From NCBI GenBank assembly GCA_020341815.1, contig CP070837.1, positions 8,034-72,033 on the forward strand: 64,000 nucleotides of DNA, written 5' to 3'. The position numbers and the translations under genes were made by a program. This DNA is from Candidatus Omnitrophota bacterium (GTDB taxonomy: Bacteria; Omnitrophota; Gorgyraeia; JAFGHF01). Numbering within the stretch: the stretch's first letter is position 1; each line of letters starts with the position of its first letter. A model generated the notes under the pieces. That model did not search any database. It was not told the origin of the DNA and worked only from the letters and a program-made list of their open reading frames with translations. Below, one piece after another: positions 26,309-48,829 of this stretch.

Positions 26309-26383
26309 TCGGGACGGGCAGATTCGAACTGCCGACCTTCTGCTCCCAAAGCAGACGCGCTAGCCAAACTGCGCTACGTCCCG
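26309..26383 (-). tRNA. tRNA-Pro(UGG), CCA not encoded
   Basis: Acceptor CGGGACG/CGTCCCG, anticodon loop TTTGGGA, T-loop TTCGAAT; 4 nt upstream of tRNA-Arg. Confidence 0.8.
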
Positions 26384-26480
26384 TTCCAAAATACTGCCAA
26401 GCTTTGTGCTTTGGCAAGACTAATGCCATATAGCACTAGTCTACTTTTAAAAATCAACCATTGAAGTATTTTGGAACGGG
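26380..26480. mobile_element. MITE-like TIR repeat, family 1, copy A
   Basis: TIRs CCCGTTCCAAAATAC / GTATTTTGGAACGGG around a central palindrome ctaatgccatatagcactag; abuts the tRNA-Pro 5' end. Confidence 0.7.
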
Positions 26481-26564
26481 ATACGTCCCCATTCTGCAGA
26501 CATACCCTCTTCCAAAATACCACCACAGTTCTCTGATTATAGCTTAAAAACGGGCCTCTGTCCA

Positions 26565-26606
26565 GAAAAAACAGGGGGCCGCAGTTAACTGCAACCCCCT
26601 TTTTTT
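26565..26606. terminator. bidirectional rho-independent terminator
   Basis: AAAAAACAGGGGGCCGCAGTTAACTGCAACCCCCTTTTTTT. Confidence 0.7.
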
Positions 26607-26630
26607 CTATTACTGGATTTTTATAACTTC

Positions 26631-27383
26631 TTACTTCTTGAATACGTTGTCCAGGAATTTCCCGGCTTTATCCTTTGCCCCAAAACCAAAAGCAATGGCG
26701 CTGGCTAAAATCAGGCCACCGAGGACAATGTCTTTGGATTTATCGGTCAGGATAGCCATAAATCCCAATTCTCTCAAGGCAAGCAGTCCGGCAACGACGA
26801 CAATGGCATATTTGGAAATATTGCCTAAGGTCTGTACCTGAGCAATTCTCATATTTCCCCCTACCACTGTGATGATGCCTGAGATGAATATTGCCAATAG
26901 AATTCCCAAAATTAGTACAAATGCAGCCGCAATCACATGTGGGATATAGGAAAGAACCTGGGCGATAAGAGGACTTGTGCTTAAACCATAGTATTCCAAA
27001 GCAGTAATTAAAGTGGCAATGATAATCAGGAAGAAAATTATCTCTGTAATCAATGCGCTCAGAGATAGTCCTACGCCGCCCTTCTTGAGAATTTCCGGAA
27101 CGCCCGCTCTTTTGGCTAATTTTTCCAGCCGAATAATCTTAAGCAATCCTTCTACTAAAGCCGCAATCCCTACAGCAACCAAGCTACCTACGAGAAGAAT
27201 AAACAGAAGCCCTACCAGCTTTGGCAAATATGCGCTCAATCTATCAAATGCGGCCCTGGCCGGCATCCATACAGCTGCGCGAAAACCGCTCTGCACAACA
27301 ATCTCCTCCTTTGCAGCAAAGGCAGGAATTACTATTGCACCCAGTAGAAAGAAAAGAAGAATGCCTGTTCCTACTTTTTTCAT
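26631..27383 (-). CDS. membrane protein with repeated conserved-TM-helix (MscS N-terminal-type) units
   Basis: Signal/TM plus repeated hydrophobic helices; 250 aa. Confidence 0.4.
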   Translation of the reverse strand: MKKVGTGILLFFLLGAIVIPAFAAKEEIVVQSGFRAAVWMPARAAFDRLSAYLPKLVGLLFILLVGSLVAVGIAALVEGLLKIIRLEKLAKRAGVPEILKKGGVGLSLSALITEIIFFLIIIATLITALEYYGLSTSPLIAQVLSYIPHVIAAAFVLILGILLAIFISGIITVVGGNMRIAQVQTLGNISKYAIVVVAGLLALRELGFMAILTDKSKDIVLGGLILASAIAFGFGAKDKAGKFLDNVFKK

Positions 27384-27496
27384 TATTTCACCCCCTTCCT
27401 AATTATAATTGACTATTATACCACAAATCTGCGCTTGGTAAAGCTTTTTTTCTAAATTATTTGTGCTGATGTCAGTTATATGATATCATAAAATCC

Positions 27497-28537
27497 ATGC
27501 AAAACAAAATAAAAAATAAAATAAATAAGGAACTCGCCCGCTCTCTATGCAATTTAGAGAAGACCTACTCTCTAAGGAAAGCCTCACCTCTTCTCTCTAA
27601 AGCTATAAAGGAGCTGGTATTAGGAAAAGGCAAAAGACTAAGACCCGCTCTTTTCATTATCGGCTATCTGGGTTTTGCCAAAACCCCTGCCGCCGGCCTC
27701 TACAAAACTGCCGTATCTTTTGAGCTGTTGCATGATTTTTTCCTTGTGCATGATGATATAGTGGATAAAGCAGACAAAAGACGGGGTAAACCCGCGATGC
27801 ACAAGAGCTTTGATAATTATTTAAAGAACGCCTCTTCCGCCAAATTCAACGGCCAGGACCTGGCAATTATTGCCGGCGATGTCCTCTATGCCCTGGCTAT
27901 AGAGAGCTTCCTTTCGATAAAAGAAGACGCGAAACTAAAGCAAAAAGCCTTACAGAACTTCCTTAAGGCTGCGATCTCGACAACCACAGGAGAGTTCATT
28001 GAGCTTTTAAGCGGCCTCAAAGGTATAGAAAAGATTTCCTCAGAGGATATATACAAAATATATGACTACAAGACTGCCCGTTATACATTTGCTTCGCCTT
28101 TATCCTGTGGGGCTATACTTGGCGGGGCAAATAAAAAAGAAATAGACAGGCTTTATCGCTACGGGATATATCTGGGCAGAGCCTTTCAGATCAAAGACGA
28201 TGTCTTAGGGATGTTTGGCGAGGAAAAGGAAACCGGAAAGCCGGCACTTACCGACCTGCAGGAAGCAAAAAAGACCATACTTCTGTGGCACGCCTACAAT
28301 AATTCAGGCAAAGAATATAAATCGGCAATTAAAAAGATTTTATCAAAAGATAAGATAGACCGCAGCGATTTATTAAAGATGCGCGAAATCATTAGCGCAT
28401 CAGGCACCCTGGATTTCGCGGGGGATGAGATTATTCATTTCACAAGGAAAGCTAAAACAATAATCAAATCTTTAAAGATGCACCCCAGATACAAGGAACT
28501 TCTCGGCAGCTATTCTCGCCAGTTGCTCACCTTATAA
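27497..28537 (+). CDS. polyprenyl diphosphate synthase (trans-isoprenyl)
   Basis: First Asp-rich motif LVHDDIVD...RRG and second FQIKDDVLG. Confidence 0.8.
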   Translation: MQNKIKNKINKELARSLCNLEKTYSLRKASPLLSKAIKELVLGKGKRLRPALFIIGYLGFAKTPAAGLYKTAVSFELLHDFFLVHDDIVDKADKRRGKPAMHKSFDNYLKNASSAKFNGQDLAIIAGDVLYALAIESFLSIKEDAKLKQKALQNFLKAAISTTTGEFIELLSGLKGIEKISSEDIYKIYDYKTARYTFASPLSCGAILGGANKKEIDRLYRYGIYLGRAFQIKDDVLGMFGEEKETGKPALTDLQEAKKTILLWHAYNNSGKEYKSAIKKILSKDKIDRSDLLKMREIISASGTLDFAGDEIIHFTRKAKTIIKSLKMHPRYKELLGSYSRQLLTL

Positions 28538-29335
28538 CTTTTCAAGGAAGTCCCCTACCCTGGCGCTGAACTCCTCACCGGCCATAAAGATGGCCTCATT
28601 ATGCCCGCCGCGCATCTGGTAAAACTCTTTAGGCTGAGGCGCAGCCTCAAATAATTTCTCACCCAGCGCAAATGGCACAATTTCATCATCGCGGCTGTGA
28701 ATGATTAATTTGGGAATGGAGATATTTTTTATCTTTGCCAGGGCATCATATTTAACGGTAATTATCCATTTTACCGGAAGATAGGGAAAGAGTTTCTTGC
28801 CCATATCACGCGCCGAAGTAAAGGCGCCTTCCGAGATTAAGGCTTTTGCAGGCACCCTGGAGACCAAATCAATAGCCACGTTTGCCCCGATGGACTTTCC
28901 GTAGACCACAATATTCTCGCGATCCACATCCGCCCTGTTTAATAGATATTCAAAGGCCGCCTGCGCATCCTGATAGAGACCCGCCTCACTCGGCGAACCC
29001 TCGCTTCTTCCATAGCCCCGATAATCAAAGATAAAGACATTGAGATTAAGCCTGCGGAATATATTTATAATTTCAATGCGGTGGCTTATATTTCCCGCAT
29101 TGCCGTGGCAGAATAACAATGTGCCCCGCGCCCCATCCGCAGACACAAACCAGCCGTTGAGCTTTACGCCCGGGGCACTTTCGAAGAAAATATCTTCGTA
29201 TTTAAGGCCGTAGTCGCTGGGCGTAATCTCGATTTTTCTTAAAGGATAATAAATGCCTTTTTTCTCAAAATACTTTAAATAGGCAAAAACAAAGAAGGCA
29301 CATACTAATATTATTGTGATAATCTGCCTGAGCAT
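28532..29335 (-). CDS. alpha/beta-hydrolase (S9/S33-like)
   Basis: GKSIGANVAI nucleophile elbow, HGNAGN oxyanion region. Confidence 0.7.
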   Translation of the reverse strand: MLRQIITIILVCAFFVFAYLKYFEKKGIYYPLRKIEITPSDYGLKYEDIFFESAPGVKLNGWFVSADGARGTLLFCHGNAGNISHRIEIINIFRRLNLNVFIFDYRGYGRSEGSPSEAGLYQDAQAAFEYLLNRADVDRENIVVYGKSIGANVAIDLVSRVPAKALISEGAFTSARDMGKKLFPYLPVKWIITVKYDALAKIKNISIPKLIIHSRDDEIVPFALGEKLFEAAPQPKEFYQMRGGHNEAIFMAGEEFSARVGDFLEKL

Positions 29336-29400
29336 TTTACTTTAAACCTCTTTACAATTATACCCCAATTTTATATAATAGTAAAGAAGGTGAATAGATA

Positions 29401-30984
29401 ATGAAGAAAACAAAAAAAACCAAGAAAACCAAAAAAGAGCCAAAGTCATCTTTTTTTATTGTAATTGCAGCTCTTGCCCTTATTATTGCAATAGCCTTTA
29501 TCTACTTAAACTTCATCTACCTGCCCCAAAAAGTAAGCTCTAAAGGACCTCTCTATCTGCAAGAGAAAACCAAAGGACAGGTTAAGGCCGAAGATATCCG
29601 CTATATTCCTTTCAAAGGGGTAAGCCTGAAAAATGTCACAATTCTCACTAAGACCAAAAAGCCTATTTTTACGATAGAGCAGGTATATTTTAATGCCCGC
29701 ATCTGGCCGCTGATTCTGCAGCAAAATCTCATCTTCCGCATTGACTTGCATCTGCCAAAAAAAGAAAGACCTCTCATCTTTAAGGGTCTTTATCAAATCA
29801 AAAAACAAGACTTAGAGGTGAATTTTAAGGCAAGAAATGACTTCTTTACCCAAAGTCAGACCATCCAGGGAACGCTTAAGTGTCTCCTGAATAAGAAAAA
29901 AAGATCCGATATAAACTTAAACATAACTTCCCGCGACCTAAATCTTCAGGGCAATCTTTATATGGAGGCGCAGGATGTGCATATCGAAAAATTATCCGCA
30001 AAAGTCTTAAACTCAAGCCTTGAACTTATCGGCGATGCCCAGAACCTTCCCGATGCCCTGCTCAATATCTACGGAAACCTTAATCTGGATTTAAAAGATC
30101 TAAAAAGCATAAAACCCGAATATACCGGCATACCTGCAAAATTGAAGCTTGAAGGCAACTGCAGGGGTGAGCTCTATATAAGCTCTGAAGCCCGTAACCC
30201 GCAAATCGGCCTAAAAATGGGTGCTGAAGAAATAAAGATTGAAGAAACTCAAGTCACGGATTTATCCCTTATATCGATAATGGAAGATAAAGAGTTTAAG
30301 CTTAATAAGCTTTATGCGAAGTCATGCGGCGGTGAAATCAATCTGCAGGGAAGCTGTAAATTGGATAAAGAAGGCCTGCCTGCCGATTTGCACTTAAATG
30401 TCTTCAATCTGGACATGCATAAGATACTTAAAGATATAACGGGCAAGGGCACGCCCGTGCACGGACGCCTGTTTACCCTGGGCCGTCTATCAGGTCCCCT
30501 TAAAACCCCCAAGAACTGCCAGGGTGATCTCTGGGTGAGCGTCTCCGGCTCCAATATACTAAAGCTGCCTCTATTTGAGGGTATAGTCAATGTGCTTCGC
30601 CTGCCTGAGCTGGGTAAAATTGAGTTTAAAGAGGCCAGCGGCAATTTCCGCATTGGGCAACAGGCAATCTCAACCGAGGATTTCAAAATAGCAAGTAGCA
30701 GCATAGTCATATATTTCAAAGGATATATGGATTTTGCCGGCAACTTATCCTTTACTATTCAACCCACTTTTTCTCAAAGTTACCTTGCCAGCACCCCGAG
30801 CGTAGGCAATATCTTAGGGATACTTATTGATTCCACAGGCACCTTCCTGGGAGAAATCGAGATGAAGGGCACCATCAAAGAGCCCCGCTATACCTTCAGG
30901 CCCATATCTATGGAGAAGCTTCTGCCTCGAGGCATAGAAGAAGGAATCAAGCAATTCTTTAAATTCAGAAAGAAAAAGGAATAA
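29401..30984 (+). CDS. AsmA-like outer-membrane biogenesis family protein (N-terminal anchor, large periplasmic domain)
   Basis: Lys-rich N-terminus, single TM, long beta-rich body; family call tentative. Confidence 0.4.
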   Translation: MKKTKKTKKTKKEPKSSFFIVIAALALIIAIAFIYLNFIYLPQKVSSKGPLYLQEKTKGQVKAEDIRYIPFKGVSLKNVTILTKTKKPIFTIEQVYFNARIWPLILQQNLIFRIDLHLPKKERPLIFKGLYQIKKQDLEVNFKARNDFFTQSQTIQGTLKCLLNKKKRSDINLNITSRDLNLQGNLYMEAQDVHIEKLSAKVLNSSLELIGDAQNLPDALLNIYGNLNLDLKDLKSIKPEYTGIPAKLKLEGNCRGELYISSEARNPQIGLKMGAEEIKIEETQVTDLSLISIMEDKEFKLNKLYAKSCGGEINLQGSCKLDKEGLPADLHLNVFNLDMHKILKDITGKGTPVHGRLFTLGRLSGPLKTPKNCQGDLWVSVSGSNILKLPLFEGIVNVLRLPELGKIEFKEASGNFRIGQQAISTEDFKIASSSIVIYFKGYMDFAGNLSFTIQPTFSQSYLASTPSVGNILGILIDSTGTFLGEIEMKGTIKEPRYTFRPISMEKLLPRGIEEGIKQFFKFRKKKE

Positions 30985-31213
30985 AATCAATAAGAACTTT
31001 CTTAAAGTCAGCGTTATATTCTTCGCTTTCTATCTGATATTTGCCGGGCACTACTTTAAGCGAATCTATCAGCCCTGGGGAACGTGCGATACGGACTTCA
31101 CTGTCTTCAAACGGGCAGCCGATGATATTGCCCAAAAAAAAGACATATACCAAAAGTCTTATCTAAGTACCGGCCGGGACTATTATAAGTATTCTCCTGC
31201 CTTCGCCGTATTT

Positions 31214-32212
31214 ATGATTCCCTTAAGCCGGCTGCACATGCATTTGTCTGTGCCCATCTGGTATTTATCCATCTTTATATTTTTTATTATCTCTATTTTC
31301 TTTATTACAAAAATCCTCACCCTTCAGGATAAGACAAAGACTCTTTCCAAGACCTTTTATTTCCTGGGGATACTGATGAGCCTGCGCTTTCTTTTAAGCG
31401 TTATCCAGCGGGTGCAAAGCGACGCCCTTGTGCTTTTTCTTTTGGCCGGATTTATCTATGCCCTTTTCCTGAAAAAAGATATTTTAGCGGGTTTTTCTTT
31501 GGCAGGCGCCTTTGCCGTCAAGCTTACCCCTTTAATATTTTTCCCTTTTCTTATCTTGCGCAAAAAGTTTAAGGCAGCTGCCTCATTCTTACTCTTTGTG
31601 CTCTTCTACGGCTTTTCCCCTGCCTTGTACCTGGGCTTTAATAAAAACCTGGAGTATCTGAAAAGTTTCCTTTTAGTGCACAGGCAAAACCCCGCAGATT
31701 ATATTATGTGGTATAAAAACCAGTCTCTCTTAAGCTGTCTTTTGAGATTTCTCACCCAGCCTTCGCAAGTCAGTATATTGAATTTAAACCCACAGGTGGT
31801 ATATATCATTTTTGCTATTCTGGCGGCATTTCTTTTTTCTCTGATTTTCATTTCCCGCAAAAAGACTCATCGCACATCCGGTTTTTCCTACCTCGCAGAT
31901 GTTTCTCTGGTCCTTATCTGCATGATTATCTTCTCACCCCTGGCCTGGAAGCACACCTTTGTGCATTTAATTATTCCGCATCTGGTTTTATTATATTACA
32001 TATTTTATCTAAACCCGCAGGATAAAATTACAAAGGTTCTGGTAATTAGCTCTTTTCTAATCAATACTATGCTTAACCCGGAAATCACCGGAAGTCTTTC
32101 TAAGATTATTCAATTATATTCAAATGTTACTTTCGGCACACTCCTGTTATATGCGGCCCTTTTAAGAGCCAGGGGAAAATATGCAGACCTTAATTATCAT
32201 TCCCACTTATAA
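31214..32212 (+). CDS. GT87/DUF2029-type polyprenol-phosphate-sugar glycosyltransferase. The annotated ATG lies inside the conserved domain; the frame is open and conserved from 30938.
   Basis: AVKLTPLIFFPFLILRKK is typical of GT87. In-frame upstream translation ...GTCDTDFTVFKRAADDIAQKKDIYQ...YYKYSPAFAVF looks like the GT87 N-terminus, but has no ATG/GTG/TTG. Confidence 0.55.
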   Translation: MIPLSRLHMHLSVPIWYLSIFIFFIISIFFITKILTLQDKTKTLSKTFYFLGILMSLRFLLSVIQRVQSDALVLFLLAGFIYALFLKKDILAGFSLAGAFAVKLTPLIFFPFLILRKKFKAAASFLLFVLFYGFSPALYLGFNKNLEYLKSFLLVHRQNPADYIMWYKNQSLLSCLLRFLTQPSQVSILNLNPQVVYIIFAILAAFLFSLIFISRKKTHRTSGFSYLADVSLVLICMIIFSPLAWKHTFVHLIIPHLVLLYYIFYLNPQDKITKVLVISSFLINTMLNPEITGSLSKIIQLYSNVTFGTLLLYAALLRARGKYADLNYHSHL

Positions 32213-32900
32213 CGAAATAGAAAACTTACAAAAGCTTACCGAAAATATTTTTCTTGTGCTTCCGCAAACCAATATTCTTGTTATCGATGACGACTCTCCT
32301 GACGGAACAGGAAGGCTCGCCCAAAGCCTGGCCGGGAAAAATCACAAAATTAAACTGATCCAGAGGGGCGGAAAATCGGGTCTGGGAAGCGCCTATATCC
32401 GGGGATTTAGATATGCCCTTGAGAATAACTATGACTTTGTCTTTGAGATGGACGCCGACTTCTCGCATAACCCGAAATACCTGCCTGAATTTCTTAAGCA
32501 GGCTACACAGTACAATCTTATCCTGGGTTCGCGTTATATTAAAGGAGGGGGTATTACAGAGTGGGGTATCCTGCGCAAGTTGATCAGTTACGCAGCCAAC
32601 CTTTACGCAAGGATAATTTTAGGTCTTCCCTATCGCGATTTAACCGGAGGGTTTAAATGCTATTCTCAAGCCGCCTTAAGGAACCTGGAATTAGATTCCA
32701 TTATCTGTGAAGGCTATGGATTTCAGATAGAAACTACTTACAGGATTTACCGCAAAGGCCTCAGCATTAAAGAAATCCCCATTGTCTTTAAAGGCAGGCG
32801 CAGAGGAAAATCAAAGATTTCCCGTAAGATCTGTTTTGAGGCATTCTGGAAGGTGCCCTTATTGCGCTTTCGGCGTATTTACCCCGAACCAAAATACTAA
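32181..32900 (+). CDS. polyprenol-phosphate mannose synthase (GT2, Dpm1/Ppm1-like)
   Basis: IIIPTYNEIENL...VIDDDSPDGT...EMDADFSHNP motifs. The last 6 codons and stop lie in the MITE. Confidence 0.8.
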   Translation: MQTLIIIPTYNEIENLQKLTENIFLVLPQTNILVIDDDSPDGTGRLAQSLAGKNHKIKLIQRGGKSGLGSAYIRGFRYALENNYDFVFEMDADFSHNPKYLPEFLKQATQYNLILGSRYIKGGGITEWGILRKLISYAANLYARIILGLPYRDLTGGFKCYSQAALRNLELDSIICEGYGFQIETTYRIYRKGLSIKEIPIVFKGRRRGKSKISRKICFEAFWKVPLLRFRRIYPEPKY

Positions 32901-32984
32901 TAACAATCAATCTTTAAAGTGAACTAGTGCCATACGGCATTAGCTTGCTATTAGTTTTGACTGTTGGAGTATTTTAGTTCGGGG
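32882..32984. mobile_element. MITE-like TIR repeat, family 1, copy B (inverted orientation)
   Basis: CCCCGAACCAAAATACT ... AGTATTTTAGTTCGGGG; sits between convergent ppm1 and rdgB and supplies both stop codons. Confidence 0.7.
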
Positions 32985-33583
32985 TTTAACTTAAAATATT
33001 TTATAATAAGTCTTTTTGCCGCCTTTAGCGCCCGGGCGCGATGGCTTATTTTATTTTTTATCTTGGGCTTGAGCTGGGCAAAGGTCTTTCCGTATTTTGG
33101 AACGATAAACACCGGGTCGTAGCCGAAGCCGTATTTTCCCTTCGGGCTAAAAGCAATCCTGCCGCGAATCTTTCCCTCCACCAGGCCGATAACTTTCGGA
33201 TAATCGCAAAGCGCCACAACACACCTGAATTGCGCGCCTCGCTCCTTCATCTTCTTGCCCTTGAGCATCTTGAGAAGCTTCCGGTTATTCCGGGCATAGG
33301 TTGCATTCTTTCCGGCAAAACGCGCAGAACGCACACCGGGTAAGCCGCCCAAGACATCTGTCTCCAGACCGGAATCATCCGCTAAGGCCGGCCTTTTAGT
33401 AAACTTAGAAACTGCCTGCGCTTTACGCAGGGCGTTTTCCCGAAAGCAACTGGCGCCTTCTTTTACTTCAGGGCAGTCAGGATACTTATTCAGCGAAACT
33501 ACCTTCACCCCCAGGCCCTTAAGGAGTTGCTTCAATTCCCTTTCCTTATCGCGGTTTTTGGTGGCAATTACTAATTCTCTCAT
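32951..33583 (-). CDS. rdgB: non-canonical purine NTP pyrophosphatase RdgB/Ham1
   Basis: [10 protein letters not shown]...DDSGLE...FGYDPVF motifs; the C-terminal about 12 aa are encoded by the MITE. Confidence 0.8.
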
Positions 33584-34302
33584 CTGCCTTTTCCCAGAAT
33601 GCGCTTCTCAGCCGCAATTAACTCCCTTATCCCCTTGGAAGCCAAATCAAGCAAATCGCGCATCTGTTTTCTGGAAAAGGGCTCTTTCTCGGCTGTGCCC
33701 TGAATTTCTACAAGCTTATCCCTACCGGTCATTACCACATTCATGTCCACAGAGGCAGATGAATCCTCCGCATAACTAAGGTCTAAGAGGAACTTGTCGT
33801 TGCATATACCCACACTGACAGCCGCCACATAATCTTTAAGCGGTAACTTATCAAACAATTTATCCTTTTGCAATTTCTCAAGGCACTGCACCAAAGCCAC
33901 GAAGCCTCCGGTAATTGAGGCCGTGCGTGTTCCTCCGTCGGCCTGCAGGACATCGCAGTCTATCCAGATAGTCCGCTCACCTAATTTATCTAATTCCGCT
34001 GCCGCTCTTAAAGAACGGCCGATAAGCCGCTGAATTTCCTGGGTACGTCCGCTGACCTTGCCAATTCTGGCCTCGCGGGGGATACGCTGAGCGCATGAAC
34101 GCGGCAACATCCCGTATTCGGCGCTGATCCAGCCCACACCCTGTCCTCTCAGGAAAGGAGGAACCCTTTCCTCTAAGGTCGCTGTGCAAGCCACCTTAGT
34201 CTTGCCTAACTCTATCAGGCAAGACCCTTCGGCATACTTGTTATAGCCGGGTTTTATCTTGAGCCGCCTTAATTTGTTGTTACTCCTGCCGCCTGCACGC
34301 AT
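33580..34302 (-). CDS. rph: ribonuclease PH
   Basis: [12 protein letters not shown] motif; 240 aa. Confidence 0.85.
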
Positions 34303-34835
34303 TATCCTGCCTTCCTTTTATATATATCCCTGCCTGCTGAATCAATTCCCACAATAAGAGGGAAGTCTTCCACCTCTAATCTATATATTGCCTCCGGGCC
34401 GAATTTTTTATAGGCTACGACCCTGGCCTTCTTTACCCTGGTGGAAAGCAGGGCCCCGCATCCTCCGATGGCCAGAAAATATACAGCCTTGTATTTCTTA
34501 ATGGCTGCTCTCACCTGAGGGCTTCTCGGGCCCTTACCAATCATCCCTTTAAGACCCACCTTCAACAAATCCAAAGTAAAATCATCCATCCGCGAGCTGG
34601 TGGTGGGGCCGCAGGAGCCGATAACTCTATCTTTTTGACGAGGGGTAGGCCCGCAGTAATAAATTACCTGATCCCTCAGGCAAATAGGCAGCTTTCTGTT
34701 ATGCCTTACGGCATCTGAAAGCTCCTGATGAGCTAAATCGCGCGCCGTATAAATAACTCCGCTTAGCGAAACCTCATCGCCGACTTTTAAGGATTTGATA
34801 CTCTTTTCTGCCAGAGGGCTGTAGATTCTCTTCAC
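34302..34835 (-). CDS. class I fumarate hydratase / Fe-S hydro-lyase beta subunit (GTG start)
   Basis: Family-typical GGCGALL region. Start codon is GTG at 34835-34833, inside the hairpin element. Confidence 0.75.
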
Positions 34836-34913
34836 CCCGCCCTTCCTTTCCTCGTAATGCCAAGGTTTCGTCCCCGTCCTTCTGATGTTTTGGAAGGGCG
34901 GGGTTCATCTTTA
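34833..34913 (-). promoter_or_regulatory. intergenic stop-hairpin-GTG module, copy 1
   Basis: UGAACCCCGCCCUUCC...GGAAGGGCGGGGUG: 12-bp GC stem between the stop of the alpha subunit and the GTG of the beta subunit, with the AGGAAGG SD inside the 3' arm. Confidence 0.6.
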
Positions 34914-35753: not shown

Positions 35754-35754
35754 T

Positions 35755-37873: not shown

Positions 37874-37890
37874 CCTTATCCATCCGTGTA

Positions 37891-37920
37891 TAAAAATGAA
37901 AAATCGGGGCTTCCCCCGAC
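37891..37920 (-). terminator. rho-independent terminator downstream of rodZ
   Basis: UCGGGG-cuuc-CCCCGA followed by UUUUUCAUUUUU on the minus strand. Confidence 0.6.
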
Positions 37921-37954
37921 ACTGTCAACTCTTAACTGTCAACTGTTAACTAAA

Positions 37955-38785: not shown

Positions 38786-41022
38786 TATTCTCTGCTCTCC
38801 ACTTCCTCTTCCGCACCTATCTCCTGATTGAGATTTGTTTTATCGTCTATAAGGATCTCCCGCGGCTTGGAGCCCCGATAAGGGCCGACCACGCCTTCTT
38901 CTTCCATCATATCAATCAGGCGGGCAGCGCGCGTATAACCCAGGCCCAATCTCCTCTGCAGCATAGAAACAGAGGCCTGCTTTGTCTGCAGTATTACCTT
39001 TACGGCCTCATCAAAGAGGTCGTCCTTTTCCATTTTTCTGGAAAAGCTGCTCTTTTTCTCCTGTGCATCCATAAGCTCCTGATTATAAAGCGGGGGTTTC
39101 TGCGCTTTTATAAAATTCACTATTCTTTCCAGCTCGCTGTCAAAAATCAAAGAACCCTGGGCGCGCACAGGTTTATGCTGTCCGGGCTTCAAAAAAAGCA
39201 AATCCCCTTTACCTAAAAGTTTGTCCGCACCATTCATATCCAGAACAGTGCGTGAATCGACGCGCGAGGCAACGCGAAATGAAATGCGCGCAGGAAAGTT
39301 TGCCTTAATTACTCCGGTTACCACATCTACCGAGGGCCTCTGGGTGGCCAAAATCAGATGAATACCCACTGCCCGGGAAAGCTGGGCCAAGCGTGTTATG
39401 GCCCCCTCTACCTGCTGCTGGGCCACTACCATCAAATCGGCTAATTCATCAATAATTACCACTATGTAGGGCATCCTTGTAACCGCAGAGTCCGCAAAAT
39501 CATCCGCAAAGTCCGCAGAAACTTCTTCTTTGCGCTCTTTGCCTTTCTCTGTGCTCTTTGCGTTTGCAATTTTTTCATTATAGAGGTCGATATTTCTTGC
39601 CCCTATTTTGGCCAGCAATTTATAACGCTCCTCCATTTCACTCACCACCCAGGCCAGAGCAGAAGAGACCTTCTTTGGATTTGTCAAGACAGGACAAAGC
39701 AGGTGCGGCAAGCCATTAAACATAGCCAGCTCCACCATCTTAGGGTCAACCATAAGGAACTTTATCTCATCAGGCGAGGCATTGAAAATAAGACTGGTGA
39801 TGATGCTGTTCATACAAACCGTCTTGCCGGAACCGGTAGTGCCGGCAATCAAAAGGTGCGGCATATCCGCCAGATCCGCAACCAGGGGCTGGCCGGATAT
39901 ATCTTTGCCCAGACATAAGGTAAGCTTGGAAGAAGCCTGCTGAAACTCTGCCGACTCCAGGATTTCTCTGAGATAGACTATGGCACTTTTACTATTGGGC
40001 ACCTCAACACCCACTCGGGATTTTCCGGGAATAGGGGCCACAATACGCACGCTGGAGGCCTTCATCGCCAGGGCAATATCATCGCTCAACTCTACAATGC
40101 GGTGAATCTTTACTCCCGGGGCGGGCTCCAGCTCATATCTGGTAATTACAGGCCCCGGACTGACCTGAGTTACCCTGGTCTCAACATTAAAGTCCCGCAG
40201 GGTAGCCTCAAGTATGTGTGAACTGGCCTGCAAATCATCCTTAATCTGTCTTTCTTCCAATGGAGGAGGTGAATCCAGTAAATCCAGCCCGGGAAATTTA
40301 TAATCGGCAGAAACTCTTTCTACGGGAACCCTTCGCTCAAGCGGCTTTTTGACAACGGGCGGCTTGACTATTTTGGGCTTGGGTATCTTGGGCTTATCTA
40401 TTTTCAAGACAGGCTTATCTATCTTTATCTTTTTAACGGAGGAGACAATCTTTTCTTTAAATACACGCTTCTTAAGAAAAAGAAATAAATTGAATAACCT
40501 GTTCCCCAGCCATTTAAAAAACGGCAAAATCAAAAACTCCGTAGAGACAAATGAAGAAAGAATAGTTAAGCCTAAGGAAATGATCAATGTCCCGGCGCGG
40601 CCAAAATATTTAATCACGAATCCTCCCGCCGCCGTACCGAGCAAACCCGCCCTCTGGAATTTAAGCACCTCATCCTGCGCTCCAAACAAGCTGAGTAAAA
40701 CCGTCGAAGACACAAGCAAAATTGCCGCACCCGATAGCCTGATATAAAGCTTAAGCGGCGGTCTTTGCAGAAAGCGCACCCAGGCCCAGGCCAAACTCAG
40801 CGAACACAAAATATATGCGGCTGCGCCCAAAAACATAAACAGGCCCTCGGCCATATATGCGCCGACAACGCCGATGAGGTTTTTTACCGGGATATTGGGA
40901 TGGGAGGTGCGAAATGAGGTATCCTGGGGATGATAGGAGATTAAACTTAAGAGAATAAAAATGGCAAAGGCTATCAGGCATAATGCCTTTATTTTATCTA
41001 CCAGGGACTGCCCTATTTTCAT
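38785..41022 (-). CDS. ftsK: DNA translocase FtsK
   Basis: 4-TM N-domain, Walker A GTTGSGKTV, gamma domain at the C-terminus. Confidence 0.9.
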   Translation of the reverse strand: MKIGQSLVDKIKALCLIAFAIFILLSLISYHPQDTSFRTSHPNIPVKNLIGVVGAYMAEGLFMFLGAAAYILCSLSLAWAWVRFLQRPPLKLYIRLSGAAILLVSSTVLLSLFGAQDEVLKFQRAGLLGTAAGGFVIKYFGRAGTLIISLGLTILSSFVSTEFLILPFFKWLGNRLFNLFLFLKKRVFKEKIVSSVKKIKIDKPVLKIDKPKIPKPKIVKPPVVKKPLERRVPVERVSADYKFPGLDLLDSPPPLEERQIKDDLQASSHILEATLRDFNVETRVTQVSPGPVITRYELEPAPGVKIHRIVELSDDIALAMKASSVRIVAPIPGKSRVGVEVPNSKSAIVYLREILESAEFQQASSKLTLCLGKDISGQPLVADLADMPHLLIAGTTGSGKTVCMNSIITSLIFNASPDEIKFLMVDPKMVELAMFNGLPHLLCPVLTNPKKVSSALAWVVSEMEERYKLLAKIGARNIDLYNEKIANAKSTEKGKERKEEVSADFADDFADSAVTRMPYIVVIIDELADLMVVAQQQVEGAITRLAQLSRAVGIHLILATQRPSVDVVTGVIKANFPARISFRVASRVDSRTVLDMNGADKLLGKGDLLFLKPGQHKPVRAQGSLIFDSELERIVNFIKAQKPPLYNQELMDAQEKKSSFSRKMEKDDLFDEAVKVILQTKQASVSMLQRRLGLGYTRAARLIDMMEEEGVVGPYRGSKPREILIDDKTNLNQEIGAEEEVESRE

Positions 41023-41030
41023 TTTTTATC

Positions 41031-43148
41031 CTACTTTGCCGGAGAGGCCGCCTGCTTAATGCTTAGATTGATCCTGCCCTGCTCGTCAATGGCAATAAGC
41101 TTGACCTTGACTTCCTGGCCGACCTTTACTACATCTTCTACGTTTTTCACAAACTTGTCTGCCAGCTCCGAGACGTGTATCAATCCTTCCTTCTTTGGCA
41201 GGAACTCACAGAAGGCGCCAAAGTTCATCACCTTTTTTATTTTGCCGGTGTAAACCTTTCCTACCTCCGGTTCCTCCGTCAGGCCATTAATATAATCTAT
41301 TGCCTTTTGCATAGCCGCTTCCTCTAAGGCAGAGATAATCACCCGACCGTCATCTTCTATATCAATAGTAGCTCCTGTATCCTGAATAATCTTGCGAATA
41401 GTTTTTCCGCCCGGGCCGATGACTTCCCCGATTTTAGCGGTGTCTATTTTAATTACATGAATCTTGGGGGCATATTTGGAAATAGTGCTTCTGGGCTGAC
41501 TGATTACCTCAGATATTTTATCCAGGATAATCATCCTGGCTTTTTTGGCCTCAGTCAATATCTGGGTAATAAGCTGAGGGCTTATCCCCTCTATTTTGAT
41601 ATCTACCTGAATAGCGGTAATACCGTCTCTGGTCCCTGTAACCTTAAAATCGGTATCTCCGAAATGGTCCTCCAGCCCTAAGATGTCAGTCAAAATAGCT
41701 GCTTTATTTCCTTCCTTTATCAGTCCCATGGCCACTCCGGCAACCGCTGCTTTAATCGGCACACCGGCATCCATTAAAGCCAAAGTCCCGGCGCAAACCG
41801 TAGCCATGCTGGAGGAGCCGTTAGACTCTAAGATCTCCGAAACCACGCGCACCGTATAGGGAAACTTCTCCTTGGAGGGCATCACCGGCTTTAAAGCCCG
41901 CTCAGCCAGGGCGCCATGGCCGATCTCGCGCCGGCCCGGGCCTCTAATCGGACGGATTTCTCCCACGCTGAAAGGAGGAAAGCTGTAGTGTAACATAAAA
42001 TTCTTGAACATCTCTCCTTCTAAGGCCTCTACCATCTGCTCATCCGAGCGGCTGCCCAATGTAGTCACCGAAAGACTCTGGGTTTCCCCCCGGGTAAACA
42101 GCCCGGAACCATGCGTCCTGGGAAGGGCGCCGGCCTTGCAACTGATGGGACGGATCTCATCATAACCTCGTTCTCCGATACGCACCTTTTTCTCTAATAC
42201 CAGCTTTCGCACCTGTTGCTTCATTGCCTCACTTAAGGTCGTCTTTATATCCTGCTCGGTATAAGCGGCTTCATCGGTGAGTAATTTTTCTATCAAGCTC
42301 TTAATCAGGAGCTCGGTCTTCTCCAGCCTCTTTTCCCTGTTGGCAATCTCAAAAATCTGCTCTATCTCACCAAGGGAGAGTTTCTCCACCTTCTTCATAA
42401 GCTCCGGGTCAATCTTTTTAAGTTCCAGGGTACGGGCAGGGTGAGTTAAGTGCGGCTTTACCTTCTTCTGCAAGCCCTGTTGCAACTTAATAATCTCCTG
42501 CAAATCTTTCCGGGCAAAGTTGATAGCCTCGGTAACAGTCTCTTCCGGCACCTCATTTGCCCCGGCCTCCAGCATAACCACGCCTTCTTCCGTAGCGGCA
42601 ATCACCAGATCCAGGCTACTCTTATCTAATTGGGCGTAAGTTGGATTGATGACGAACTCATCGTCAATTTTACCGACACGGACAGCGCCTATCGGCCCGC
42701 CAAAAGGAGGATTTTTGCCAAAGGCAATATTGGCCAGCATAAGGGCGGAAGACGCCCCCACCATGGCCAGGACATCCGGGTCGTTTTCTCCATCGCTGGA
42801 GAGGACAATAGCCATTACCTGAACCTCATTAAAAAGGCCCTTGGGAAACAGCGGCCGGATAGGCCGGTCAATGAGCCTGGCGCTTAAAATCTCTTTTTCC
42901 GAAGGACGCCCCTCTCTCTTAAAGAACCCGCCCGGGATTTTACCTGCGGCGTAGGTCTTCTCCTGATATTCCACAAATAAAGGGAAAAAACTGGCTTCTT
43001 CTCTGGGTTCATCCGATATTACCGCAGTCACCAAAACTACTGTGCCGCCGTACTGGACGGTAACTGCTCCATCGGCCTGTTTGGCTACCTCTCCTGTTTC
43101 AATAACCAGGTTTTCCCCGCCTAATTTTAATTCTACTTTCTCTAACAT
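41031..43148 (-). CDS. pnp: polyribonucleotide nucleotidyltransferase (PNPase)
   Basis: Two RNase PH domains, KH and S1 C-terminus; 705 aa. Confidence 0.9.
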
Positions 43149-43156
43149 ATCTCCTC

Positions 43157-43426
43157 TTACTTTCTAAGCTTGAGTCTTTTAATCAGCTTTTCGTATTCTT
43201 CTTCATCTTCTTTCTTAAGATACTCCAAGAGCTTTCTACGCTGATTTATCAGGCGCAGGAGCCCCTGTCTTGAGTGGTGGTCTTTCTTGTGGACCTTGAA
43301 ATGCTCCACAAGGGCATTGATTCTTTCTGTAAGCAGGGCAATCTGCACAGAAGAAGAACCGGTATCTCTCTCATGCATCTTATAATCATGAATTAATTTT
43401 TCTTTCTTGTCTCTCAGCAAGCCCAT
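43157..43426 (-). CDS. rpsO: 30S ribosomal protein S15
   Basis: [25 protein letters not shown]. Confidence 0.9.
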
Positions 43427-43469
43427 ATTCTTTCGAAACCTCCTTTTTCGACTTAAAGCACTGATACAA

Positions 43470-44135
43470 CTACCTTGGATATCCTATCGGAATAACATAC
43501 AAAGGCTGTTCTTTATCCGGCAACTGCAATACTGCCTTTACCGCCTGATCATCAAAGGCACCCACAGGCACAGAACCCAGCCCCAGAGCAACCGCCTGCA
43601 AATGGACGTTCTGGGCTATGTGTCCCACTTCTATATCTGTATAACGCTCACCGCGCGAGCCGTAATGCGAGGTAATCCTTTCATAAACTGCCGCAATTAC
43701 AATACTCACCGGGGCCTGGGCAACAAAACCCTGACCCAGACAAGCCGCAGCCAGCTGACTGCGCATGTCTTTCGGTAAAAGCTGCTCTAACTTATGCCCC
43801 CGGGGTAAGTAGTGAAATAATCCATCGCTCTTGACGATGTAAATCTCCATCGGATAACGCGCACCTGCCGAAGGCGCGGCCCGATAGCCGCTTTCAGTTT
43901 CGGTAATCCCCTGAGCCGACCAAAGCAGCTGTCCGATCTGCGCAAGCGTCAGCTCTTGCGGCCTAAAGCTGCGCTTTGACCTTCTCTGCACTATGGCCTC
44001 TTCCAGCGAAATCTCTCCTTCGAGGCGGGGAACAGGTAAAGATATATTCTTTTCCATCGTCTCTAACTCTTGAGCTTCTGCCGAAGGGACTCCCAGCGCA
44101 AATCCAAGCAATATAACTGTAAAAAGATACCTCAT
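43470..44135 (-). CDS. nitroreductase-fold (SagB-type dehydrogenase-like) protein with signal peptide
   Basis: GARYPMEIY and nitroreductase-like C-terminus; start trimmed to MRYLF. Confidence 0.55.
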
Positions 44136-44243
44136 TTTATAGACCAGGATTATAGCACATATCAACTAAAATTGCAATCTTTATTTAAGATTGACTGCTG
44201 GGGTCTCTTATGTTAAGATGGAGGTTCAAAATAAGGAGATGAA

Positions 44244-44960
44244 GTGGAGAACCCCCGGGTTTCCATCGTTATACCTGTTTATAATGAAGAAGAAAATATC
44301 CCTCTATTACTTGAAGGCATAGCTCAAGTAATGGACGGACGCACCGAACCCTGGGAGCTGATTATTATCGATGACGGAAGCACGGATAACAGCCTTGAAG
44401 TTTTAAAGACGCTGGCTGATAAGTATCCTCCTCTGCGCATCATCAGGTTTCAAAAAAACAGCGGCCAAAGCGCCGGTTTCGATGCCGGATTCAAGCTGGC
44501 CAGGGCCGAGACAGTAGTTACTCTGGATGCCGATTTGCAATATGACCCCCGTGACATCCCCCGCCTGTTAGAAGGATTAAAGGATTATGATGTAGTCTGC
44601 GGCCGGCGCAGGAAGAGGCTTGACCCCTGGCTCAAACGCGTCTCTACCAAAATAGCCAACGCCGTCAGGAATAAGCTCAGCGGAGAAAATATAAAAGACA
44701 CCGGCTGCTCCCTCAAGGCTTTCAAAAGGTCTTTTCTCGTAAATCTAAAAATGTATAAAGGCATGCACAGATTTCTGCCTACTCTGTTAAAAATGCAGGG
44801 TGCTAAAGTTACCGAAGTTGAGGTAACCCACCTGCCGCGAAAGTTCGGCCGTTCAAAATACAATATCAGAAATCGCCTGTTCCGCTCCTTTCTGGATTTA
44901 TTATTTGTTGCCTGGATGAAAAAACGTAACCTGGATTATAAAATGGAGGTTATCCGATGA
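44244..44960 (+). CDS. GT2 polyprenol-phosphate glycosyltransferase (ArnC/GtrB-like)
   Basis: VSIVIPVYNEEENI...IIIDDGSTDNS...DADLQYDP. Confidence 0.8.
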   Translation: MENPRVSIVIPVYNEEENIPLLLEGIAQVMDGRTEPWELIIIDDGSTDNSLEVLKTLADKYPPLRIIRFQKNSGQSAGFDAGFKLARAETVVTLDADLQYDPRDIPRLLEGLKDYDVVCGRRRKRLDPWLKRVSTKIANAVRNKLSGENIKDTGCSLKAFKRSFLVNLKMYKGMHRFLPTLLKMQGAKVTEVEVTHLPRKFGRSKYNIRNRLFRSFLDLLFVAWMKKRNLDYKMEVIR

Positions 44961-45220
44961 ATCTCTGGATTCTTTTAGGTCTCTTTGCCCAATTTCTTTT
45001 CTTCATGCGTTTTTTTGTGCAGTGGATAGTATCGGAGAAAAAGAAAGAAAGCACTATCCCTGAATCTTTCTGGTATTTCAGCATTGCCGGAAGCCTTCTG
45101 CTTCTGATATACTCTATCTACAGAAAGGATATAGTTTTTATCCTCGGGCAAAGCGTAGGTTCATTCATATATATGCGTAACCTGATATTAATTCATAGAA
45201 AAGGAAAAGTTTCCGTTTAA
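44957..45220 (+). CDS. lipid-A-biosynthesis N-terminal-domain (LAB_N) small membrane protein
   Basis: 87 aa, 3 TM, FMRFFVQWIVSEK motif; typical partner of ArnC-like GT2. Confidence 0.6.
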   Translation: MNLWILLGLFAQFLFFMRFFVQWIVSEKKKESTIPESFWYFSIAGSLLLLIYSIYRKDIVFILGQSVGSFIYMRNLILIHRKGKVSV

Positions 45221-45221
45221 T

Positions 45222-46892
45222 ATGCTTAAAAGACAATTATCTCAGCGCCGGGGCATGCTTTTATTTGTCCTGGTAATTTTTTCTCTGGCTGCGCTCTTTG
45301 TGAACCTGGAAAAAAGGAGCTTCTGGGAGCCGGATGAAGGAAGATATGCCGAGATATCCCGGGAAATGCTGGAGTCCGGCGACTGGCTTACCCCCCGCCT
45401 AAACTATATTAAACATCTGGATAAGCCTCCTATTACCTATTGGCTTATCGGCTCTTCTTTCAGGCTCTTCGGGCAGAACGAATTTGCCGGACACCTGCCG
45501 CTGGTTATTCTGGCCTTTGCAGGAGTGTTGGCCGTTTATTCCTTAGCCAAAGAGACGCAAGGTGCACGCACAGCATTCCTTTCGGCAATTATCTTAATCA
45601 GTACCCTGGGTTATCCAGCCTTGGCGCGGGTGCTTTCCACCGACATAATACTTAGTTCTTTCTGTCTCTTTTCTTATCTATTTTTTGTGCGAAAAAAATA
45701 TTTTCTCTTTTATCTTTCGCTGGCCTTGGGTTTCATGACTAAAGGGCCGATAATCCTTTTGCTTGTGCTTCTGCCCATCTTTATCTTTCTCATCTATACA
45801 AAACAAACATATATCTTTAAAGAAATGCGCCTTGTGTCTGGAGCAGTCATCTTTGCGGTCGTGGGACTGCCCTGGTTCATCTATCAAATACTTATTCACA
45901 AAGGCCTCAGTTACAATTGGCTCATGCAGCAAACTGTAAGCAGGATAGCCACCAGAGGCGAAGAACCCTTCTATTTCTTCGTTCCAGTATTAATCGGACT
46001 TTTCTTCCCCTGGATATTTTTCTTAAGCCCGGCCCTAAAAAGGTATCTCTCTTTCAAAAGGACATCGTTCGATAAAGAAAAGACATGGACCCTGCTTCTT
46101 TTCCTCTGGTTCCTGGTACCTTTTATTTTCTTCTCCTGTATCGGCAAAAAGCTGGTTCCCTATATTCTGCCGCTTTTGGCACCTCTGGCGGTAATAACGG
46201 GCCGTCTCTGGGATGAGACTATGGATAATCCCGCAATATTATCGGAGAAGTTTTTTTCTGTTTCCTATTATATCTTCCTATCGTGTAAGTCAATTATGTT
46301 AATAGCAATGCTCACTTTTCTCTATCGGGGCATTGATTACCAGCTCGATATCCCTGCGGCCCGTCCAAATATAATCGCGCTTTGCATAATATTGGCGGGT
46401 TCAATAACAGCAAGCGTATCTTTCTTCCGCCTAAAAAAACCTCAAGCGCTTTTCTGGACTGTAGCCTTAACTTCTGCGCTTTTCTTCCATACGGCAATAG
46501 ATGTACTGCCTAAGATAGAGGCGGATATCAGTAAATCCGTAAAGCCTCTGGCTCTAAAGATTAAGCAAGACTTAACACCAGAAGACAAAATAGTTAACTA
46601 CCGCTGCTTCCTGAAGAGCCTACCCTTTTATCTTTCTCGCCGCACAATAGTCATTGAGCGAAGCCGCCACTTAGACTTTGAAGAAAATGAGCACTGGCAG
46701 GATTATCTGCTCAAGGACAAAAATGACCTTTACAGGCTTTTATCTTCCAGAAAGACGCGCATCTTCTGCATTACCTATACCTGGGAATTTGAGAAGATTA
46801 AGGCGGAATATTCCGGGCGGATTTATTTATTGGGTAAGGCAGGAAAATATGTGCTCTTCAGCAATCAAATGAGGCCCAAACTTACGGAATAA
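45222..46892 (+). CDS. GT39/ArnT-family polyprenol-phosphate-sugar:glycosyltransferase (PMT_2)
   Basis: EPDEGRYAEISREML...KPPITYW motif; 12+ TM. Confidence 0.75.
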   Translation: MLKRQLSQRRGMLLFVLVIFSLAALFVNLEKRSFWEPDEGRYAEISREMLESGDWLTPRLNYIKHLDKPPITYWLIGSSFRLFGQNEFAGHLPLVILAFAGVLAVYSLAKETQGARTAFLSAIILISTLGYPALARVLSTDIILSSFCLFSYLFFVRKKYFLFYLSLALGFMTKGPIILLLVLLPIFIFLIYTKQTYIFKEMRLVSGAVIFAVVGLPWFIYQILIHKGLSYNWLMQQTVSRIATRGEEPFYFFVPVLIGLFFPWIFFLSPALKRYLSFKRTSFDKEKTWTLLLFLWFLVPFIFFSCIGKKLVPYILPLLAPLAVITGRLWDETMDNPAILSEKFFSVSYYIFLSCKSIMLIAMLTFLYRGIDYQLDIPAARPNIIALCIILAGSITASVSFFRLKKPQALFWTVALTSALFFHTAIDVLPKIEADISKSVKPLALKIKQDLTPEDKIVNYRCFLKSLPFYLSRRTIVIERSRHLDFEENEHWQDYLLKDKNDLYRLLSSRKTRIFCITYTWEFEKIKAEYSGRIYLLGKAGKYVLFSNQMRPKLTE

Positions 46893-46921
46893 AATGACGT
46901 AAGTTTGTTGGCCGAATATGA

Positions 46922-47026
46922 CCCCGTACCAAAAATACTTCAACAGTCAAAACTAAAAGCAAACTAATGCTATATGGCACTAGTTCACTTTTAAAAATCA
47001 ACCGTTGTTAGTATTTTGGTACGGGG
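46922..47026. mobile_element. MITE-like TIR repeat, family 1, copy C1
   Basis: CCCCGTACCAAAAATACT...AGTATTTTGGTACGGGG; between the GT39 gene and the rnpB 3' end. Confidence 0.7.
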
Positions 47027-47085
47027 TTAATTCGCACAGCGACTTATGTTCACTAGTGTTCCATAAGTCGTGTGTTCATTAAAGA

Positions 47086-47536
47086 GAGTAGAGCTATAAG
47101 CCGAGTTCTGTATTTGACGGCCATCCATCTAGTTTTGCCGTTACCGACAAAATCAATAGCGGTCAACCCGAAAGTGCTGACGAACCGGGTGAAGCTCGTT
47201 GCCATATAAGCATCCCTTCCTATTTAACCTTTCTCCGCGTAGAGATTACCTCTTTTCACCCTCTGCCCAGAAAAATTTTTCTGGATGAGTTGTTGTCTCT
47301 GTGGCTCTAATCCTATCCCGAACCAAAATACTTCAACAGTCAAAACTAAAAGCAAACTAATGCTATATGGCATTAGTTATGCCAAAAGTATAAAACTTAG
47401 CAGTATTTTGGTTCGGGACGATGGGCGTTACCCACTACGCTCACCCTTTGGAGCTCGGACTTTCCTCTCCCCCTGCTGTTTCGTTTTGCTTCGCAAAAGC
47501 GAAACAAAACGACAGGGGCAGCGACCATCCGCTCTA
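47086..47536 (-). ncRNA. rnpB: RNase P RNA (bacterial type A) carrying a MITE insertion in P9
   Basis: Minus-strand read: P1 AGAGAGUAGAGC/GCUCUACUCUCU, CR-I GGAAAGUCCGAGCUCC, P8 GUGGGUAACGCCCAU, CAGAGGGUGAAA...GGUAAUCUCUAC (CR-II/III), ACAGAACUCGGCUUAUAG (CR-V). Confidence 0.8.
47317..47417. mobile_element. MITE-like TIR repeat, family 1, copy C2, inserted inside rnpB
   Basis: CCCGAACCAAAATACT...AGTATTTTGGTTCGGG lying between P8 and the P10/11 strand, i.e. replacing/extending P9. Confidence 0.7.
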
Positions 47537-48824: not shown

Positions 48825-48829
48825 TATAA

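Follow-up and report, generated by a model that had tools for sequence, protein, structure and literature searches.

A mobile palindromic repeat family, probably of the MITE type, with copies in the RNase P RNA and tRNA-Pro genes of an Omnitrophota bacterium

MITEs (miniature inverted-repeat transposable elements) have been described in bacteria as different as Neisseria (Correia), Streptococcus pneumoniae (RUP), the enterobacteria (ERIC/IRU) and the cyanobacteria (Nezha). They are non-coding elements of approx. 100–150 bp that carry terminal inverted repeats, are flanked by short target duplications and lie mostly in intergenic regions; they are present or absent from strain to strain, and their transcripts form long hairpins. 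A repeat family with similar traits (likened by description) is found in a stretch of 64,000 nucleotides from a Candidatus Omnitrophota bacterium (assembly GCA_020341815.1, contig CP070837.1, positions 8,034 to 72,033 of the forward strand), referred to here as the window. Unlike those MITEs, this element is associated, at three copies, with 4-bp duplications (TTTA, TACG) instead of TA, is a palindrome over its whole length with a conserved centre, and has copies located in genes for RNase P RNA and for a tRNA; its ends and core were unmatched in the collections searched, and it has no known parent insertion sequence. The element is genuine and of an ordinary kind; it is its insertion sites that are unusually informative.

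Three other systems, likewise likened by description, deserve mention. The Rickettsia palindromic elements are also mobile palindromes of approx. 100–150 bp that survive within functional genes at structurally tolerant places, although they are best known in frame in protein genes, whereas the present copies occupy the tips of RNA helices and the 3' ends of genes. Cyanobacterial RNase P RNA has short tandem repeats in its helix P12, and 23S rRNA helices have intervening sequences, which are excised by RNase III; in both cases foreign repetitive sequence lengthens a peripheral helix of the essential RNA without destroying it, and the same presumably applies here. The difference is that the extension described here is a discrete mobile element with inverted repeats, which is also found elsewhere in the genome, and that the helices involved are P9 and P3. 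Finally, bacterial interspersed mosaic elements (BIMEs), the repetitive extragenic palindromic (REP) units that compose them, and IS1397, which inserts at REP loops, share with the present family the arrangement of palindromic units in mosaics, nested at the centres of other palindromes. However, REP units are extragenic, imperfect palindromes of 20–40 nt that have no target duplication and are linked to RAYT genes, whereas this element has approx. 100 nt, 17-bp ends and duplications at three of its copies, and on these grounds it is not classed as a REP or a BIME.

The four copies in the window are named c1 to c4, and an L followed by a number denotes a locus or contig from another assembly. 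At present eight distinct copies are known, i.e., c1 to c4 and those of L001, L002, L081 and L083. They are 101–105 bp long and palindromic throughout; their termini, YCCCG-WW-CCAAAATACT, form 17-bp terminal inverted repeats (end pattern CCCGWWCCAAAATACT), and a palindrome of 20 bp, CTAATGCCATATGGCATTAG, occupies the centre. With up to three mismatches, seven matches to the 16-nt end CCCGAACCAAAATACT were counted in the window, against 0.58 expected, and none of 100 shuffled sequences reached seven; the 20-nt core occurs four times against 0.00 expected, and a covariance model built on six copies recovered only c1 to c4 in the window, with 100–108 bits. Stops interrupt most reading frames of the element, no frame is longer than 34 codons, and there is no long open reading frame (ORF). 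An earlier note on this DNA, written from the sequence alone, had proposed four copies of a short non-coding element with terminal inverted repeats; all four were found where it had placed them, the shuffle controls and the covariance model agree, and the 17-bp ends are paired in eight of eight copies. Its positions were right and its limits slightly less so, given that the true ends, YCCCG...CGGGR, shift c1 and c4 to the limits listed in Table 1. It had also marked c2 alone as inverted, and pairwise comparison of the internal sequences in both orientations indicated that this is correct for c2 and that c1 is inverted too with respect to c3 and c4. By and large, the contexts that it gave are correct: c4 is contained in the RNase P RNA gene (rnpB), c1 extends over the start of tRNA-Pro, and c2 and c3 are located between convergent genes.

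Every copy in the window folds as one long hairpin, with energies of -42 to -57 kcal/mol and z-scores of -8.7 to -12. In an alignment of the eight copies, 95.8% of the cells pair across the terminal and core stems. The covarying pairs are the outermost one (C-G/U-A) and two inner ones (A-U/U-A), and no shuffled alignment matched the observed score; in eight related sequences, this covariation is suggestive only. Two types of arm can be distinguished. In type I, to which c2 and c3 belong, the arm is a near-perfect hairpin, and in type II, represented in the window by c1 and c4, the right arm contains ..TGCCAAA.. and pairs poorly in its middle. Type II is confined to the three copies at RNA genes (three of three, against none of the five type I copies), a distribution expected by chance once in 56 cases. 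The strand opposite to the canonical one folds clearly better in c3 (-57.3 kcal/mol for the minus-strand RNA versus -42.2 for the plus strand), c4 and L083, and the two strands are approximately equal in the other copies. A short sequence upstream of c1, GGTATTTTGGAAGAGGG, is probably a solo remnant of an end: of its 17 positions, 13 are shared with the right end, including a contiguous run of 11 (a similarity read from the sequence, with the expected frequency of 11-mers as the only yardstick).

The clearest evidence of mobility comes from a close relative, SRR24270831 (Logan contigs L005 and L008), whose genes are 91–96% identical in DNA to those of the window. Copy c2 lies in the overlapping 3' ends of a glycosyltransferase-2 gene and a Ham1/RdgB gene, and both ORFs extend into the element. 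The window reads GCGTA-TTTA-[element]-TTTA-ACTTAAAAT at this locus, and L008 reads GCGCA-CTTA-ACTTAAAAT, i.e., a clean empty site with a single CTTA. This comparison establishes a target duplication of 4 bp and shows that the runs of C and G belong to the element; the possibility that the target was the centre of CCCGGG, with these runs contributed by the target, was discarded for this reason. In the relative the two genes overlap, and the insertion provided new C-terminal tails to both proteins. Direct repeats of 4 bp also flank c1 (TACG) and the copy of L081 (TTTA). Copies c3 and c4 are missing from L005, even though the core of rnpB (47082–47319) is identical in 237 of 238 positions. The outgroups L006, L007, L084 and L087, as well as L001, have neither c3 nor c4 at these positions, which makes both insertions derived, and the covariance model detected no copy in the loci of these relatives (L005 to L008, L084 and L087). 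The presence of c2, c3 and c4, against their absence from L005 and L008, points to several insertions after this lineage diverged from the nearest relative sampled. The recent mobility suggested by the earlier note is borne out. The note had also proposed to define the target duplication from empty sites; c2 provides such a site, and the two rnpB copies have no duplication.

Table 1. Positions of the element copies and of associated features (numbering of the window unless a contig is named).
Feature	Position	Strand	Remarks
Copy c1	26379-26481	-	Type II; canonical orientation on minus strand; 100.5 bits with the covariance model
Copy c2	32882-32984	-	Type I; in overlapping 3' ends of convergent genes
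Copy c3	46922-47026	+	Type I; core of composite element
Copy c4	47316-47418	+	Type II; within rnpB, apical part of helix P9
Candidate solo end remnant GGTATTTTGGAAGAGGG	26508-26524	-	Approx. 30 nt upstream of c1
TACG direct repeat around c1	26375-26378 and 26482-26485		Left repeat = tRNA-Pro nt 6-9 (minus strand)
TTTA target duplication at c2	32878-32881 and 32985-32988		Empty site in L008
tRNA-Pro(UGG)	26309-26383	-	67.6 bits; perfect acceptor stem; first 5 nt overlap c1
Promoter-like site TGGACA-17-TATAAT	26536-26564	-	11 of 12 consensus matches; upstream of c1 and tRNA-Pro
Glycosyltransferase-2 gene	32181-32900	+	3' end at c2
Ham1/RdgB gene	32951-33583	-	3' end at c2
Composite AAATGAGGCC...GGCCGAAT-[c3]-TTAATTCGCAC...GTGTGTTCAT	46867-47079	+	213 bp; recurs at three unrelated loci
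rnpB, bacterial type A, without P13/P14	47081-47540	-	RF00010, 185.4 bits, model positions 1-367
Family 2 hairpin	window 47463-47526; L005 5640-5830; L006 11915-11950; L084 3790-3822		In P3 or P9
Split tRNA-Arg(UCU)-like gene	26031-26302	-	Directly downstream of tRNA-Pro
237-nt repeat	12335-12571 and 15744-15980		96% identical
Inverted arrays of 7-nt repeats	48696-48830; 55282-55444; 60732-61178		Three paired structures
118-aa gene	60777-61133		PF05635, bracketed by third array pair

The position of c1 is peculiar, since the end of the element and the start of the tRNA are the same nucleotides. The terminal CGGGA of c1 (26383–26379, minus strand) constitutes nucleotides 1–5 of tRNA-Pro, which has a perfect acceptor stem including the C1-G72 pair. 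Read along the minus strand, the sequence runs GGGGA-CGTA-[element ending in CGGGA]-CGTA-GCGCAG...; on the other strand, the right TACG is followed by TCCCC, so that the minus strand carries GGGGACGTA upstream of c1. Judged from its sequence, GGGGACGTA is the displaced relic of the former 5' end of tRNA-Pro. This order implies that the insertion fell within the first nine nucleotides of the gene and pushed the old 5' end upstream; the survival of c1 was possible only because the end of the element matches the start of the tRNA. A promoter-like site, strong by its match to the consensus, and the terminator of the preceding gene are both located upstream of c1, and if this promoter-like site is used, c1 would be transcribed as part of the pre-tRNA leader. 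An 8-bp duplication, GGGACGTA, was considered initially for this copy; it was replaced by the 4-bp TACG plus a chance identity between CGGGA and nucleotides 1–5 of the tRNA, a reading in keeping with the 4-bp repeats of c2 and L081. The relative does not offer a clean empty site for c1, given that tRNA-Pro and its leader in L008 are a divergent allele. As a separate observation, this stretch (window 26309–26560 versus L008 16900–17211) is approx. 19% divergent, with compensatory changes in its stems, and the sequence on either side is 98–100% identical to L008, which suggests that a patch of approx. 250 bp was swapped in by recombination with a more distant lineage.

The second RNA gene that hosts the element is rnpB. 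The gene matches RF00010 in full length, and the insert c4 is restricted to the position of the P9 loop, where 97 nt are found instead of the four of the Rfam consensus; the RNase P RNA bears the reverse complement of the canonical strand of c4. Another copy was found in rnpB of L001, a metagenome-assembled genome (MAG) labelled Planctomycetia that represents the same organism as the JGI contig L003. The locus and the window are syntenic, with proteins that are 64–71% identical. Here the element is of type II, has the same orientation as c4 and forms the whole of P3 between CCCC and GGGG; it is the sole match in the L001 genome. Both P9 and P3 have hypervariable tips among seven rnpB genes of the clade. 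A Logan contig of the source organism breaks off halfway through c4, as is usual for assemblies that meet a repeat.

These rnpB genes hold additional hairpins. A second family ("family 2"), unrelated to the element and with the structure CUGUUUCGUUUUGCUUCGC-AAA-GCGAAACAAAACGG, was found only inside rnpB: it occupies P9 in L006 and L084, and also in L005, where its tip is inverted, and both the window and L005 have it in P3 in inverted orientation. Nested in the loop of the L005 P3 hairpin is a further insert of 62 nt (5690–5760), which shares the motif CAAGGACTARG with an extra insert of the composite in L083 (7118–7170); this motif hints at another small hairpin family common to these genomes. 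The rnpB genes of the window, L001, L005, L006, L007, L084 and L087 lack P13/P14 and have 1 nt where the Rfam model has 43. Large helix extensions and the absence of P13/P14 have been reported for RNase P RNAs of uncultured bacteria, and the loss of P13/P14 was called "not unusual" in them (10.1101/2020.03.05.979740). Two Logan contigs from other relatives, L085 and L086, end a few bases from the stop codon of the glycosyltransferase gene, where rnpB begins, and these ends may be assembly breaks induced by repeats at rnpB.

Copy c3 does not stand by itself. It had been listed as a separate insertion of approx. 100 bp, and it turned out to be the core of a larger repeated unit, located between a PMT-type glycosyltransferase gene and the 3' end of rnpB; this unit provides the former gene with its stop codon and the seven codons before it. 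At two unrelated loci, L081 and L083, the element is enclosed by the same flanking modules as c3, with the common layout AAATGAGGCC..hairpin..GGCCGAAT-TTA-[element]-TTAATTCGCAC...GTGyTCAT. The homology of these flanks indicates that the composite of 213 bp moved as a whole. The block is absent in L005, L006, L007, L084 and L087, where the end of the glycosyltransferase gene abuts rnpB. The three composites differ in detail: TTTA flanks the inner element in L081, and the inner element of L083 is inverted relative to the outer module, in comparison with L081 and c3, and is accompanied by an additional nested hairpin insert of approx. 50 nt. The left module is also found alone in L081, beside a different hairpin.

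The four copies of the window are contained within 21 kb, and the covariance model found no other in the remaining 43 kb or in approx. 4.7 kb of additional sequence of the source genome. A strict pattern of terminal inverted repeats plus core, which fits the eight known copies, was matched by one genome locus among 185,579 species representatives (L001) and by two JGI metagenome contigs, in collections without the source genome, and by none of the viral contigs. A synthetic probe of 61 aa, made by joining two reading frames of the element, was searched against 5.8 billion proteins and led through two spurious ORFs to the copies in L081/L082 and L083 (ENA assemblies). In all, these scans of public genomes, metagenomes and proteins added no more than four distinct copies to those of the window, and public data speak for a family that is rare and restricted to its lineage; the "hundreds genome-wide" anticipated earlier was an extrapolation that could not be confirmed. 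Nevertheless, the family is not restricted to the window, a possibility that the earlier note had raised against itself, since the element was seen in both orientations, in unrelated contexts and in independent assemblies from NCBI, Logan, JGI and ENA. The other possibility raised there, a structured RNA family, found no support either: no family was assigned to the element by Rfam at gathering thresholds in the whole window, or at E≤1 around c1, c3 and c4, and the best look-alikes were the microRNAs mir-2513 (30.4 bits, threshold 89) and MIR1862 (19.6 bits, threshold 84). The transposase with matching ends that had been expected did not appear. The window has no second pair of element ends, the pattern of inverted repeats alone gave 70 single matches and no true pair in viral contigs (an apparent pair in L055 was a chance match on inspection), and a BLAST search of plasmids for a parent insertion sequence gave nothing. 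The IS1380 family, with CC ends and duplications of 4–5 bp, may be a lead to the parent. The literature searched contained no earlier description of the element itself, nor one of mobile elements located in rnpB or known from Omnitrophota.

The explanation that we favour, with moderate confidence, is that of a recently active, non-autonomous, MITE-like element that inserts with a 4-bp duplication and whose surviving copies were filtered by the harmlessness of the hairpin that they add. A transposase encoded elsewhere would mobilise the element in trans, and each insertion would create the 4-bp target duplication. Being self-complementary, the element would fold into a single long hairpin in any transcript that carries it, and for this reason copies would survive where an extra hairpin does no harm. 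Three kinds of places would meet this description: the space between convergent genes (c2, c3 and L002), where a few C-terminal codons are rewritten; the tips of peripheral RNase P RNA helices (P9 in the window, P3 in the other species), where the helix would be extended coaxially; and the 5' end of tRNA-Pro, where CGGGA recreates nucleotides 1–5 and the remainder of the element would be part of the 5' leader removed by RNase P. Both host RNA genes score as full-length (185 bits for rnpB, 67.6 bits for tRNA-Pro) and presumably continue to function.

Several observations weigh against this explanation. At P9, c4 exactly substitutes for an unrelated hairpin of 30 nt in L005, with identical flanks (CCTATCCC/GGGACGATGG), and such a swap of one hairpin for another is not predicted by simple insertion. 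Nor does the nesting of units at the centres of palindromes fit the explanation well. A target duplication is absent at c4, at the P3 copy of L001 and at c3, and likewise at L083, and the flanks of L002 agree in only three of four positions. Two of six independent insertion events occurred in rnpB, a target of approx. 400 bp in a genome that measures at least 1.55 Mb, and tolerance alone does not explain this recurrence well. In each copy the two ends co-vary (AA/TT, TT/AA, TA/TA, C..G/T..A), and conservation of the central palindrome equals that of the ends; neither feature is needed in an ordinary substrate of a transposase. Moreover, public data hold very few copies, and an autonomous element with these ends was not found, even if such an element would have escaped the strict pattern applied to genomes and metagenomes.

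Some of these observations would be accommodated if the hairpin modules spread without a classical DDE transposase, by copying of palindromes into the tips of other palindromes, with mosaics similar to BIMEs as the result. The routes proposed are template switching during replication, recombination at short stem bases shared by both hairpins (CCC...GGG), or an enzyme of the REP/RAYT kind that acts on single-stranded DNA hairpins. The substitution at c4 falls precisely at a shared CCC/GGG stem base, the L001 copy is the whole of P3 between CCCC and GGGG, and neither left a duplication. Within the composite, CGAAT-TTA-ATTCG has the element at its centre; other small hairpins are nested in the same manner (the 62 nt in the P3 loop of L005 and the approx. 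50 nt in L083), and the left module stands beside a different hairpin in L081. The inverted tip of the P9 hairpin between L006 and L005 is a classic outcome of template switching, the inner element of L083 is inverted relative to the outer module, and the ends of each copy co-vary. Nevertheless, c2, with its 4-bp duplication, is a model case of insertion into coding sequence that is not palindromic, c1 and L081 also show 4-bp repeats, and the 17-bp ends far exceed the length needed for microhomology at a stem base. No RAYT or HUH gene was identified, although no systematic search was aimed at them. Spread by hairpin exchange is regarded as rather improbable.

A more speculative proposal, to which we would assign a low probability, is that the element does not insert at random and instead homes to the tips of GC-clamped hairpins with a stem base similar to its own ends (CCC..GGG), such as P9 and P3 of rnpB and the CGGGA of tRNA-Pro; helices of structural RNA genes would then be its preferred targets. 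According to this proposal, RNase III may excise the hairpin in the manner of an intervening sequence and leave an active RNase P RNA in two pieces, and the type II arm may be a variant that RNA genes tolerate. If the recurrence in rnpB reflects targeting and not tolerance, it would represent a new rule of target choice for a bacterial mobile element.

Still less probable, in our opinion, is that the hairpin is primarily a functional RNA under selection (a stabiliser or terminator of 3' ends, a processing site for a double-strand-specific RNase, or a protein-binding hairpin) and that its mobility is secondary. The compensatory changes that preserve pairing in the stem and the highly conserved central palindrome are in line with this idea, as is the fact that the type I copies are all at convergent 3' ends, with a run of T after the L002 copy. 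In c3, c4 and L083 one strand folds better by 6–15 kcal/mol, because the mismatches are G-U on that strand, and for c3 and c4 this is the strand carried by the rnpB transcript. However, this asymmetry is inconsistent among copies and most of them have no run of T; the orientation relative to neighbouring genes is variable, and the C-termini of proteins are overwritten. The same sites are empty in the close relative, so the hairpin is not required there. That the element is an already known RNA family, an artefact of assembly or a palindrome due to chance is very improbable, since the only similarities to known families are weak microRNA-precursor look-alikes far under the Rfam gathering scores, shuffling predicts zero matches to the core, and the element is present in five independent assemblies from different pipelines.

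Mobile elements are essentially undescribed in the Omnitrophota, a phylum without cultured members, and the family offers dated, site-resolved insertions with empty sites in a close relative. Two of its copies amount to natural experiments: an RNase P RNA with P9 (or P3 in another species) lengthened by approx. 100 nt, and a tRNA-Pro that takes its first five nucleotides from the end of a transposon, with a hairpin of 100 nt right upstream of the RNase P cleavage site. In practical terms, elements of this kind interrupt short-read assemblies at rnpB and give rise to spurious ORFs and altered gene ends in the annotation of MAGs.

Another aspect of the window concerns the region directly downstream of tRNA-Pro, where a split tRNA gene is found. 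It consists of a 5' half, GTCCCCGTAGCTCAGCTGGATAGAGCATCTGCCTT, an insert of approx. 229 nt and CTAAGCAGAGGGTCGTGTGTTCGAATCACACCGGGGACGCCA; once joined, the two halves form a molecule similar to tRNA-Arg(UCU). The insert lies between U34 and C35, is preceded by U and ends in G, as in group I introns. Neither ARAGORN nor Rfam (E≤1) called this gene. Its 3' end at approx. 26031, CCGGGGACGCCAT, is also the sequence in which both units of the 237-nt repeat end, and the G+C content is 34–35% across 16–24 kb, versus 41–50% elsewhere in the window. This arrangement looks like one or two islands integrated in tandem at the tRNA-Arg gene.

Finally, the window contains inverted arrays of 7-nt repeats (AGTCGCT or AGTATCT and their complements) that form three paired structures. 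The first two pairs enclose little or nothing, and the third brackets a gene of the "23S rRNA intervening sequence protein" family; these arrays are possibly another mobile family.

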